DNA of 64,000 bases, taken from assembly GCF_050920415.1 (NCBI RefSeq), contig NZ_CP169309.1, one strand, 5' to 3'. Origin of the DNA: Escherichia coli (lineage in GTDB: Bacteria > Pseudomonadota > Gammaproteobacteria > Enterobacterales > Enterobacteriaceae). This document shows, piece after piece, positions 12,701 to 15,700 of this stretch. The position numbers are program-made. Every line of letters starts with the position of its first letter. Positions within the stretch are counted from its first letter, which is position 1.

Positions 12701-15700
12701 AGAAAGCAGCACAATTCGTGGCTTATTCTTTGGTTACTCTCATTCTGATATTGGTTTTGATCGCGGCGGTAAAGGCAATGTCGATAGCTATACCCTGGGG
12801 GCTTATGCCGGTTGGGAGCATCAGAACGGTGCCTATGTTGATGGGGTGGTGAAAGTTGACCGTTTTTCCAACACCATCCATGGCAAGATGAGTAATGGGG
12901 CAACAGCGTTTGGCGATTACAATAGTAACGGCGCGGGTGCTCATGTCGAGAGCGGGTTCCGTTGGGGGGAGGGGTTGTGGAATGTAAGGCCTTATCTGTC
13001 CTTTACCGGCTTTACCACTGATGGTCAGGACTATACGTTATCAAATGGTATGCGAGCGGATGTGGGAAATACCCGCATATTACGCGCTGAAGCGGGAACG
13101 GCGGTAAGCTATCACATGGACCTGCAAAACGGTACGACGCTGGAACCCTGGCTGAAAGCCGCCGTGCGTCAGGAATACGCCGATTCTAACCAGGTGAATG
13201 TTAATGACGACGGCAAATTTAATAATGACGTGGCTGGAACCCGTGGCGTTTATCAGGCTGGGATAAGGTCATCGTTTACCCCGACGTTAAGCGGTCATTT
13301 GTCAGTCAGCTATGGCAATGGCGCGGGGGTAGAATCACCGTGGAATACCCAGGCGGGTGTGGTCTGGACGTTCTGATAACAGAAAATAAACAGGCCGTAA
13401 TGTGTCGCGGTCTGTTTATCAAATTAATCGCAGATATAAAAAAAACCAACCGCAATAGGTTGGTTTTTCTTGGGATTTTTGGTCGCACGAGAGTAGTTTA
13501 ATTGAGTGTATAACTAAATGATTTTAAATAATATTCTTTATTCAACTTTTAAATCGTATAACCAAACGTATAACTAAAATAATTTGCTGAAAAAGTGTAC
13601 AATTTCAGCAATAATTGCCCTAGCGACTATCATCCTGCTCCCCGGATTTTTTCCGGTTAAATGTTAATCAGGCTGCTGGGCTTTGCCTGTTCGGTAGGTG
13701 TAATGATTATCGTAATACTTTTCCCCCAATGGGGTAAAAGCATCAACCGTAACGGAAGTCGTTATGGTTGCCTTGATGATCTGCGTGGTCATTATGACCA
13801 TTCAGCCAATGACCTTAATCAGAGCTTTTCGCTAAAAATGACGTTGGCCACTCGTCCGAAAAGCACAAAATCCCATCGATTTTTAATTAACGGTTAAACC
13901 GTCTTTTTGTCACGTCGTGTCACTGGTTGTCACTCTCCGTCACGATCTCCGATAGCCTGGCTGCAAATTAAACTACGAAAATTTCGTAGTTCTGACTTCT
14001 TTCAGATAGTCGGTTGCCTGGTTACACGAAAAAAATTACTTCCTGCGTTTATCCCGCTTTGTATGTCCGTGCTGAATGCCCCGCAGTGGATCTTCTTTTT
14101 TCAGGTCGATCCCCATGTCCGTTAGTGTTTTTGTGGCGGCGGTTCTTATGGCACAAATCAGGTCTCTTTCCGGTTCCCGGGTTATGGTTGCCTTCCGGAT
14201 ACATGCCGTTCGTCGTTCCGTTACATACTGACGCGCTTCATCACTTGCCGCCTGTTTCAGTAACTCACCCCAGCGATTAGCCGCCCGTCGCCATAAACCT
14301 TTCGCTTCCAGTTCTTCCGCTTTGTCATCATGCACCATAAGCATAATCCCATTGATACCTGTTAAATCTGAATGGTTGGTTTCCGTTCTTTTGATAATTT
14401 CCCTCATAGCTTATTGTATGACAGTACTGTCCCACAATAAGGAATCACACATGAGAATGACCAGGCACAAAAAACAGATTCTTGAACTTTACAAACCTGA
14501 GTATCGCGATTGGGTGCGGGTGGAGGCCGGAGATCCGCCTTTTGATGTTCGTGGTGTGACAGTGCTGCTCTATGGTTCCGAATATCAGCGATATCACATA
14601 GAGGCAACCCGACGAACGTTAAACGCTATGGTAAATGATGGGATCCTGTACCGCGTGAAAGTGCGCGAACCCCGCTTTGATGTGCGTATCGGTAGCGATG
14701 GCGCTCACTGTACGGTAATCCGGTACGGGCTGGGTAAATCAGATGATTAAATCACCAGAATGTAAATTTACATTCTGCCAGCCACCAGCTACAGAACGCA
14801 AATTTGCACTTTGCTGAAATATTAACGGGTTAGGCCAGAGTGCAAATTTGCATTATGCTTTAACTTCAGCAAGTTACCGCCGTAACCGCTCCGGCTTCTT
14901 CCACTGGTACGTTATTTTGGCTTTTTCCCTGTACGTCTGTATCCGGCGACGGTAGGCCAGCATTTCAAGAACGCGGATCCGTATGTCGCGCATATCCGCA
15001 TCATTAAGCTGGATACCATCACGGTGCATCACCTCAGCAACCACACGAACATAATTTTCTGCGGTCACGCTGTCCGGCTGCGTGGCCTGTTCGTCAGCCT
15101 GCTGGTTGATTCCGGCGACGCGGCGGATTAATCGCAGTAGTTCGGTTTCTGTCATTGTGCCCCCATCGCGCTGGTTAAGAAAACAAGCTCAGATTTTTTG
15201 TAAAGAATCTGTCACGCTAAAAGATGTCGAACAAAAAACAACCTTCTCCATCATCTTTTTTGCATCGATTACATTAAAAACAACAGGTTACATACATGAT
15301 GATGATGACGATAAAATCACAAAAATGCGCTTTTTTCCGCGCCCGCCCGCCCCGTGTTCATACCCACCCCACCAGGAGGACCCGCAAAAAAGGCGGCTGG
15401 TGCCGCCTTGTTGTCATAGTGAATCGGTACCGCCTGATTTGACCATACCGCGATAATCCAGAGCGGCCACACCAGCATCAATACGGACTTTCCAGGCCAC
15501 ACCGTCAACGATGAAACCTTCCTGCTGTTCAAGGTAAGGCTCGTCATTGCCATCAAGATAAGCCACCTCGATTGTGTCCGTTCCCTGTGCGGAAAGCATG
15601 TACCATTGTTTTTCGCTGATATCATCAAGGCGGGGATCGACGATAATATCCAGTAGTTTGTGATACGGGTTAAAGATCCCGCTGTTTTTATCTGCCCCGA

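Follow-up and report, generated by a model that had tools for sequence, protein, structure and literature searches.

Palindromes arranged with linkers at the ends of bacterial transcription units are known from the bacterial interspersed mosaic elements (BIMEs), for which terminator, mRNA-stabilising and topological insulator properties are described together with a variable copy number; the linker of BIME-1 carries a site for integration host factor (IHF), and the reiterative ihf BIMEs (RIBs) lie at the 3' ends of transcription units (PMC3333891). Here we analyse three related inverted repeats, hereafter dyads 1 to 3, in a stretch of 64,000 nucleotides from Escherichia coli (RefSeq assembly GCF_050920415.1, contig NZ_CP169309.1), the whole of which is referred to as the window. 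The dyads are located, as the initial annotation of the window had placed them, between the 3' ends of two convergent genes at 14451–14750 (+) and 14874–15155 (−), both of which belong to an E. coli phage-inducible chromosomal island (PICI), a satellite integrated at tRNA-Pro. Gene coordinates are those of the RefSeq annotation of an identical genome (E. coli strain 08-00022; region 100% identical).

Two of the three dyads turn out to be the palindrome modules of a tandem array of leader and palindrome that is found in PICI tails, and for this reason the sites are not three isolated operators. The nearest known architecture is that of BIME-1/RIB, also named repetitive IHF-binding palindromic elements (RIPs). 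Our best reading, which we hold tentatively and by analogy, is that the dyads would be modular architectural or insulator elements at the point where two transcription units converge.

Three Copies of One Dyad at a Convergent Gene Junction

The initial annotation recorded one perfect 18-bp palindrome and two shorter palindromes of the same AAATTT-centred type. The 18-bp palindrome is present (GAATGTAAATTTACATTC, 14758–14775) and is part of a longer one, as dyad 1 is the perfect 22-bp palindrome CAGAATGTAAATTTACATTCTG at 14756–14777, beginning 5 nt past the stop codon of the convergent gene that encodes a 99-amino-acid (99-aa) protein. All three sites are real and form one repeat family, with the correction that the second of them, dyad 2 (CAGAACGCAAATTTGCACTTTG, 14792–14813), has a perfect core of 10 bp (GCAAATTTGC, 14798–14807) and not of 12 bp, because the C and the A that flank this core are unpaired. 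Dyad 3 (CAGAGTGCAAATTTGCATTATG, 14836–14857) has a perfect core of 12 bp (TGCAAATTTGCA, 14841–14852). No strand is assigned to any of the dyads, which are copies of a single 22–24-nt repeat with 75–83% identity to copy 1, start-to-start distances of 36 and 44 bp and the common consensus CAGArYGyAAATTTrCAyTyTG.

The degenerate 22-mer occurs at these three places only in the 64 kb of the window, compared to an expectation of 0.03, and none of 100 shuffled sequences reaches three occurrences. The 10-bp core alone gives a weaker signal, with 3 occurrences vs. 0.74 expected and 5 of 100 shuffles reaching three. The motif is thus neither at random frequency nor without conservation, the dyad being kept in other elements as well. 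Ranked by length, the perfect palindromes of the window are headed by dyad 1 and by one of 21 bp that lies at a distance of 780 bp in the same tail.

Dyad 1 sits at the junction of the unit array with a cassette formed by the 99-aa gene and a PerC-family regulator gene. In six different downstream contexts it stays unchanged and linked to the 3' end of the 99-aa gene. Dyad 3 is broken by a single base in one lineage (L020/L090). No promoter-like site was found between the convergent gene ends. A Chi site (GCTGGTGG, operon strand) at 14782–14789 (−) abuts dyad 1, and several unit variants in other islands carry Chi directly after the palindrome; the island is rich in Chi overall, with 9 sites in ~11 kb, and a Chi hotspot was rejected since Chi is just as dense in the tails as elsewhere in the island.

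The Array of Leader and Palindrome Units in PICI Tails

The gene that converges on the 99-aa gene encodes a 93-aa protein (phrog_1561; 14874–15155, −) and is the last gene of the PICI operon. At 54 loci from IMG/VR and 5 from RefSeq, read on the strand of this gene, the downstream DNA that forms the PICI tail is a mosaic of tandem ~44–48-nt units, in each of which a short palindrome comes after a conserved leader, TAAC-NNN-YTGATATTYYCGRRAA. The array always starts at the stop codon of the 93-aa gene, which is the first TAA of unit 1, and later units repeat the sequence CGGCG(C)GGTAAC. The number of units in an island runs from 0 to more than 5, some PICIs having none. In the window, unit 1 (14833–14876, − or operon strand; 44 nt) consists of the leader TAACTTGCTGAAGTTAAAGCATAA, the palindrome module that is dyad 3, and CTCTGGCC, while unit 2 (14785–14832, − or operon strand) consists of the leader TAACCCGTTAATATTTCAGCAAAG, the palindrome module that is dyad 2, and TTCTGTAGCTGG. 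The two units form a 44-bp tandem duplication with 71% identity, and unit 1 is homologous to the widespread unit TAACTTGCTGATATTCCCGATAA-CGCAAAATTGCG, from which it differs by paired C>T and G>A changes in the stem.

The palindrome slot tolerates a range of sequences. It contains, where expected, a Watson-Crick hairpin of 4 bp or more after 49 of the 60 distinct leader occurrences, and the 36 distinct hairpins comprise at least 10 stem sequences, with GC, TA, CG and AT all in use at pair 3. Watson-Crick pairs make up 172 of 180 observed positions vs. 106 of 180 after shuffling of the arms, where the top 4 pairs are Watson-Crick by the selection rule; pair 5 lay outside this rule and is Watson-Crick in 28 of the 36 hairpins. 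Within identical flanks the stem changes are paired, from CGC/GCG to CTC/GAG, to TGC/GCA or to CCC/GGG. The slots that hold the dyad in satellites accept at least 10 unrelated palindromes. Of 5,426 E. coli genomes, 1,317 have units, at 1 to 6 places in each (median 1); every such place is a PICI tail, and the units are thus specific to PICIs.

Read as its complement, the leader gives AAAATATCAACGGGTTA, which matches the IHF consensus WATCAANNNNTTR perfectly and has an A-tract; the invariant positions of the leader are the specified positions of the consensus, and its variable positions are the Ns. About half of the distinct units match the consensus perfectly at the sequence level. In the window, the + strand at 14820–14832 (TATTAACGGGTTA, in unit 2) fits the consensus with one mismatch.

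As the initial annotation had noted, the dyads have no G+C-rich stem followed by a T-run. The terminator scan of 14751–14873 returned no terminator, and the stems are weak, with predicted hairpin energies of −9.1 kcal/mol for dyad 1 (an AT-rich stem of 9 bp), about −2 kcal/mol for dyad 2 and −2.6 to −5.1 kcal/mol for dyad 3; the folding z-scores are good, though trivially so for palindromes. The dyads are not canonical intrinsic terminators. Across the units, the mean number of T residues in the 8 nt after the hairpin is 1.5 on the operon strand vs. 3.3 on the opposite strand. The likeness to intrinsic bidirectional terminators is one of position and of hairpin-forming sequence, and sister islands (L002, L092) do hold genuine terminators in the homologous slot, e.g., CTCCTCAAAATTGAGGAG-CCTTTTTATC, whereas the dyads of the window have neither G+C-rich stems nor T-tracts. 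A known RNA family was also rejected, as Rfam gave nothing at the gathering threshold and permissive thresholds gave only chance hairpin look-alikes.

The 22-bp Dyad in Other Mobile Elements

The dyad was looked for by retrieval of exact or near-exact matches, so its apparent invariance is in part a matter of ascertainment. Exact copies are present in 36 stretches of IMG/VR and 47 of metagenomes, and the representatives of ~100,000 species give 5 matches (Haemophilus, Aggregatibacter and Citrobacter, along with two probable chance hits), a count on which we reject an operator of the core genome. Allowing the four variable positions to be free added one locus only, on which we base the statement that 18 of the 22 positions are fixed while the remaining four vary, by transitions. 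The motif occurs in other satellites and phages, though not in the two candidate helper phages discussed below.

The contexts in which the dyad is found are diverse. In prophages (context B) it comes after the stop codon of an antirepressor-like gene and is itself followed by a genuine terminator, separate from it, and then by variable lipoprotein genes; given this terminator, the dyad is not needed for termination in these phages. In Pasteurellaceae-type satellites (context C) it is inside a small gene upstream of the primase gene, and in other phages (context D) it is inside KilA-N/ANT antirepressor genes. In other enterobacterial satellites (context F: L112, L140 and the L147 type) it fills the palindrome slot of a unit downstream of a homolog of the 93-aa gene, sometimes with two dyad variants within one array. 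Further unrelated backgrounds have a GC content of 0.43 to 0.67, and over all backgrounds the range is 0.31 to 0.67. The copy number is three in the lineage of the window, two in the L147-type satellites and one in every other element.

Wherever the dyad falls within a long open reading frame (ORF), it is in the frame that encodes the hydrophilic peptide Q(N/S)(V/A)NLHS. Only half of the independent context-variants (7 of 14) show symmetry between positions 8 and 15, from which we conclude that the variable positions do not covary. The G-U pairing possibility is on the sense strand in context B, and A-C is on the sense strand in the coding contexts. The dyad contexts have no protein family that all of them share: of the 89 dyad-bearing stretches, the satellite primase family is encoded in 35, a 93-aa homolog in 23 and the 99-aa protein in 14, and the dyad is also found in phages without a P4-type primase. 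An ORF of L187 that we considered as ParB-like is not supported by Pfam. The Pasteurellaceae-type satellites with the dyad share the P4-type primase family of the window at 31–38% amino-acid identity, and in these satellites (L101 at ~2900–2950, and low-GC relatives) a Haemophilus-type uptake signal, AAGTGCGGT, and a CTCAAATTTGAG hairpin are located within 40 nt of the dyad.

Two other tail palindromes behave like the dyad. One of them is AACTACGAAAATTTCGTAGTT, which is found both in PICI tails and in phages. It is present inside a separate ANT-domain phage antirepressor family, where it encodes NYENFVV, and in some phages (L278, L285) it occupies the slot of the dyad, just upstream of the same terminator, AAACCCGCTTAACTGCGGGTTT. 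The invariance of palindromes inside phage genes is no proof of constraint, because the loci were retrieved by exact match.

Metagenomic phage-like contigs carry a comparable kind of array. Those in L156 (5568–5832), L155 and L178 (52–338) have a period of 61–62 bp and combine a conserved 25–29-nt direct repeat with a variable perfect palindrome of 22–32 bp, one of which is the dyad. The L156 array is located where convergent gene blocks meet in a phage contig, and its flanking ORFs, in a list read by eye, include phage terminase and ArdA-like genes and no cas gene. Period, conserved repeats and variable inserts give the L156 and L178 arrays a likeness to CRISPR arrays, a reading that we reject because every "spacer" is a perfect palindrome and no cas genes were seen nearby; the PICI units moreover differ from CRISPR in their period of 44–48 nt.

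Packaging and Replication Signals of the Island

The packaging function that the initial annotation had offered for the palindromes is contradicted by the position of the cos-type elements of the island. A 98-nt element is present in two copies, at 15311–15408 (−) and 17850–17947 (−), which flank the protease/capsid gene. It is 96–98% identical to a non-coding spot between an Rz-type lysis gene and terS in Stx1- and Stx2-converting phages, and it matches the extreme right end of the linear mEp460 genome, which begins with terS. From this similarity the island is taken to carry two helper-type cos regions, an arrangement like that of EcCICFT073, in which cos1/cos2 are duplicated. Given these two regions, phages of the Stx/cdtI/mEp460 type are the likely helpers, and they share the fused protease-capsid gene type. 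The candidate helpers identified via cos (an Stx2 phage and mEp460) have none of the tail palindromes, and 50,697 phage records gave no match to the palindrome region. Both cos-homologous elements are 450 bp or more from the dyads with a whole gene between, for which reason we reject a packaging site here.

E. coli PICIs are known to possess cos sites with a PICI-specific cosB that is read by a complex of Rpp and TerS (Fillol-Salom et al. 2019, PMC6739421), and the dyads could in principle be R elements of this kind, recognised by TerS or an Rpp-type protein and interrupted by an IHF site, following the lambda layout R3-I1-R2-R1. This idea is attractive because there are three repeats, two of which have an IHF-like site between them, and because they lie downstream of both a cos-type element and a gene in the terS position; the general likeness to lambda and PICI cosB includes the nearness of packaging-related genes. 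Still, we regard it as very improbable. The array is not beside cosN: no lambda cosN was found near the dyads, and in L004, an EcCICFT073-type relative, the terS-like gene lies between two exact lambda cosN sites, which are outside the array. A PDB sequence search of the 93-aa and 99-aa proteins and of the small proteins of L004 and L005 gave no match to RppC or TerS, many PICIs of the same family are without units, and the array palindromes differ from unit to unit.

Even less probable is that the dyads would be a replication origin or an auxiliary cis site comparable to crr of P4 and bound by the island primase, although three repeated sites are present and the same P4-type primase family is encoded in over a third of the dyad-bearing stretches, as counted above. 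The origin of the island is recognisable elsewhere, as two sets of GTCTACC/GGTAGAC iterons that flank an AT-rich stretch directly 3' of the primase gene (~18250–18500, −), in agreement with the described architecture of PICI origins (PMC6092414), and this canonical origin is 3.6 kb from the dyads. In the satellite L112, P4-type GTGTTCAC iterons are likewise directly 3' of the primase gene and the copy of the dyad is 720 bp further on. The dyad does not track primase specificity, since the iterons differ between the window and L112 while the dyad is the same; it is also found in phages that lack this primase.

The Island and Its Genes

The island that holds the dyads has a length of ~11 kb and is located between tRNA-Pro (24290–24366) and the yejO autotransporter gene. 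It encodes an integrase, an AlpA-type helix-turn-helix (HTH) protein, an Icd-like protein, a DUF4222 protein, a P4-type primase (18506–20254) and a fusion of ClpP protease and major capsid protein (15414–17303), in addition to the 93-aa, 99-aa and PerC-family proteins. We assign it to the Gram-negative PICIs because its gene content is that described for them (Fillol-Salom et al., PMC6092414). No exact repeat of the tRNA-Pro 3' end of at least 12 nt was found at the far end of the island. Direct repeats with CGTATAAC-N4-CGTATAACTAAAA are present near both island ends, at 13555–13590 and 24135–24170, and are possibly att-associated.

Homologs of the 93-aa gene are present in ~1,470 of 5,426 complete E. 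coli genomes, and dyad 3 is the exact start of most of these alignments. In other elements the gene is also the final one, downstream of terS-like or DUF1441 genes. The model of the protein has three helices and gave no informative fold match. More distant homologs, at 32–54% identity, are located directly upstream of leader and palindrome units in L112 (3307–3495) and L147 (4031–4261) and keep a C-terminal Y-x-W-K/R-K-P-x-x-R-R motif. As these homologs also precede units, the pairing of the gene with the array is older than the E. coli PICI family.

The 99-aa gene (14451–14750, +), convergent with the operon, forms with the PerC-family regulator gene (14036–14338, −) an accessory cassette inside the tail. 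That the pair is an insertion follows from the terminal tail modules of the window being downstream of PerC. The 99-aa protein was assigned no family in a family-database search; its model has a pLDDT (predicted local distance difference test) of 61 and its weak Foldseek matches are almost all to winged-helix domains, so it may be a winged-helix protein, with low confidence. We rejected it as the cognate binder of the dyad on the grounds of the weak model and of its presence in so few (14 of 89) of the dyad-bearing stretches. For a regulator encoded in the cassette, the 3' dyads are a less plausible operator than a 32-bp imperfect palindrome, CTTATTGTATGACAGTACTGTCCCACAATAAG, at 14410–14441, where PerC and the 99-aa gene diverge. 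Another imperfect palindrome, AAAAACAGTACCCACCGTTTTAAAACGGTACCCACTGTTTTT, of 42 bp (22380–22421), overlaps the 3' end of the AlpA-type HTH gene.

The modules past the units include ACTACGAAATTTTCGTAGTT and a GTGACA-iterated stretch (CGTGACGGAGAGTGACAACCAGTGACACGACGTGACA, 13903–13946, −), whose sequence ends the tails of many other PICIs and which is presumably an integrase arm-type region of the island end. The second tail palindrome of the window is the perfect 21-bp AACTACGAAAATTTCGTAGTT at 13971–13991, with no strand assigned, which in other PICIs is part of the terminal module directly after the array.

Discussion

The array starts at the stop codon of the last operon gene as a series of ~44–48-nt units with a leader and a palindrome of free sequence, and in the window the slots of units 1 and 2 and the site at the cassette junction are all filled by variants of one 22-bp dyad. 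Where the PICI operon meets oppositely transcribed genes, such an array could act as an architectural or insulating buffer in the manner of BIME-1/RIB, with the palindromes supplying hairpin or cruciform-prone elements that are symmetric in both directions and the linkers supplying bends by IHF. Transcriptional and topological interference would be limited in this way. The array is dispensable and variable in copy number.

The comparison to BIMEs seems reasonable in several respects. Both are extragenic tandem palindromes with linkers, at the 3' ends of transcription units or between convergent genes, with a copy number that varies by locus and a linker sequence that matches the IHF consensus, and the function of both is probably structural or insulating, not coding. 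A structural role that is independent of sequence is also suggested by the tolerance of the satellite palindrome slot for many sequences, and the analogous array of repeats and perfect palindromes at a convergent junction of an unrelated phage contig (L156) supports the insulator reading.

A number of observations weigh against this reading. In the PICI units the linkers are conserved and the palindromes vary, while in repetitive extragenic palindromes (REPs) the opposite is the case; the PICI palindromes are shorter and weaker (12–22 bp, AT-centred), the units are at a median of one locus per genome vs. hundreds of copies dispersed through it, and they have no 5' GTAG/CGTC tag in the REP orientation, nor is there a gene for a REP-associated tyrosine transposase (RAYT) in the island annotation. 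The unit family has weak hairpins: their mean energy is −5.8 kcal/mol, and dyads 2 and 3 reach about −2 to −5 kcal/mol. T-tracts of at least 5 follow the hairpin in 0 of 41 units on the operon strand and in 10 of 41 on the other. In the units, G-U and A-C changes (7 vs. 11) have no asymmetry that would point to a transcribed hairpin. The IHF match is degraded in the units of the window, with 1 mismatch in unit 2 and at least 3 in unit 1, and any function of the units must be dispensable, because some PICIs lack them. Finally, a generic structural role does not explain the conservation of the exact 22-mer in unrelated contexts, coding ones included, or the lack of covariation at its variable positions.

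These last two points are better accommodated if the dyad is a sequence-specific site with half-sites CAGA-R-TG-Y-AAA for a dimeric DNA-binding protein encoded by a mobile element or by the host. Binding to the three tandem copies would be cooperative, and they might be a roadblock, a decoy or a sensor for a helper-phage protein. The regulator site suggested in the initial annotation is a live possibility in this form and not as isolated operators, and we consider it possible though on balance doubtful. Specific recognition is argued for by a 22-mer conserved beyond the need of a generic hairpin, without covariation, and persisting within coding regions in a single frame. The fixed positions hold across at least six unrelated flank contexts, in satellites and phages of both Enterobacteriaceae and Pasteurellaceae over the whole GC range given above, and the behaviour of positions 8 and 15 is that of independent assortment per half-site and not of pairing. 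Perfect symmetry over two helical turns is typical of dimer operators, more than one copy is present in the window lineage and in the L147-type satellites, and the model of the adjacent 99-aa protein is weakly winged-helix-like. Of the properties expected for the operator of a dimeric factor, we thus find dyad symmetry of about two helical turns and conserved sequence, but neither adjacency to a promoter nor a co-occurring cognate regulator. No protein family is shared by all contexts, and the 99-aa gene is in a minority of them; the dyad is mostly a single copy at gene 3' ends or inside genes, the satellite slot accepts many unrelated palindromes in its place, and the near-exact scans account for part of the invariance. 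A host factor may be the regulator. To our knowledge, the dyad fits no operator consensus of LexA, CRP, TyrR, ArgR, Lrp, CytR, PurR or Fur/Zur, from which it appears to differ in spacing. A broader form of the signal hypothesis, which we think unlikely, is that the mobile elements of Proteobacteria share a small repertoire of interchangeable perfect palindromes, e.g., CAGARTGYAAATTTRCAYTCTG and AACTACGAAAATTTCGTAGTT, which act as cis signals for an undescribed recogniser. Their slots may be the arrays at satellite operon ends, the gap between a phage gene and its terminator, and in-frame positions inside KilA-N/ANT genes. Alternatively, self-complementary palindromes could mediate cross-talk of satellites and phages at the RNA-RNA or DNA level. 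On this broader hypothesis, the arrays of conserved repeat and variable palindrome would form a new class among the repeat arrays of mobile elements.

Two further explanations involve recombination. The palindromes could be non-functional scars or duplications from the recombination of PICI tails that were perfected by template-switching (quasipalindrome correction), as might be expected where tails are extremely mosaic, where the final ~10 nt of the 93-aa gene recur in the units, where units 1 and 2 of the window are a tandem duplication, where copy number varies down to zero, and where one lineage tolerates a broken dyad 3. This seems improbable to us, as the exact 22-mer is kept between elements whose primases are only 33% identical in amino-acid sequence, and the same palindromes recur in phage genes and phage 3' slots. 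A site-specific recombination or cassette-boundary site, with 8-bp inverted arms around an AAATTT overlap and with modules such as the 99-aa/PerC cassette or phage morons being swapped, would fit the exact placement of dyad 1 at the junction of array and cassette, the variable lipoprotein "moron" genes that follow the dyad and its conserved terminator in context B, the exchange of the dyad for another palindrome in the same slot, and the large serine recombinase gene ~0.9 kb from the dyad in L113. We give this explanation still less credence: no recombinase is consistently associated with the dyad, a fully symmetric overlap gives no directionality, the copies in the window are 36–44 bp apart and thus too close for productive synapsis, and no pair of empty and filled sites was found.

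Partition sites offer one more point of comparison for the array as a whole. The sopC site of the F plasmid consists of 12 units of 43 bp, each with a short inverted repeat bound by SopB, and the PICI array resembles it in having tandem units of ~44 bp with one short palindrome in each. The two differ in that the island annotation has no ParB/SopB-type gene, the PICI palindromes differ between units, and their copy number can be zero.

As widespread satellites, the PICIs of E. coli mobilise virulence regulators, PerC being one example. The functions of their cos, ori and Rpp have been described, while their non-coding tails are not described in the same reports (PMC6092414; PMC6739421). The present analysis shows that the PICI tail is an organised, family-wide array of IHF-consensus leaders and palindromes, and that one of its palindromes is a 22-bp element common to distant satellites and phage antirepressor modules. 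Whatever the function, the tempting interpretation of the dyads as a packaging site is corrected. If the units are only buffers of the BIME type, they would be a modest extension of a known theme. If the palindromes are specific signals, they could point to an unrecognised layer of interaction between satellites and their helpers or between phages, or to a new kind of insulator at places where the operons of mobile elements collide.

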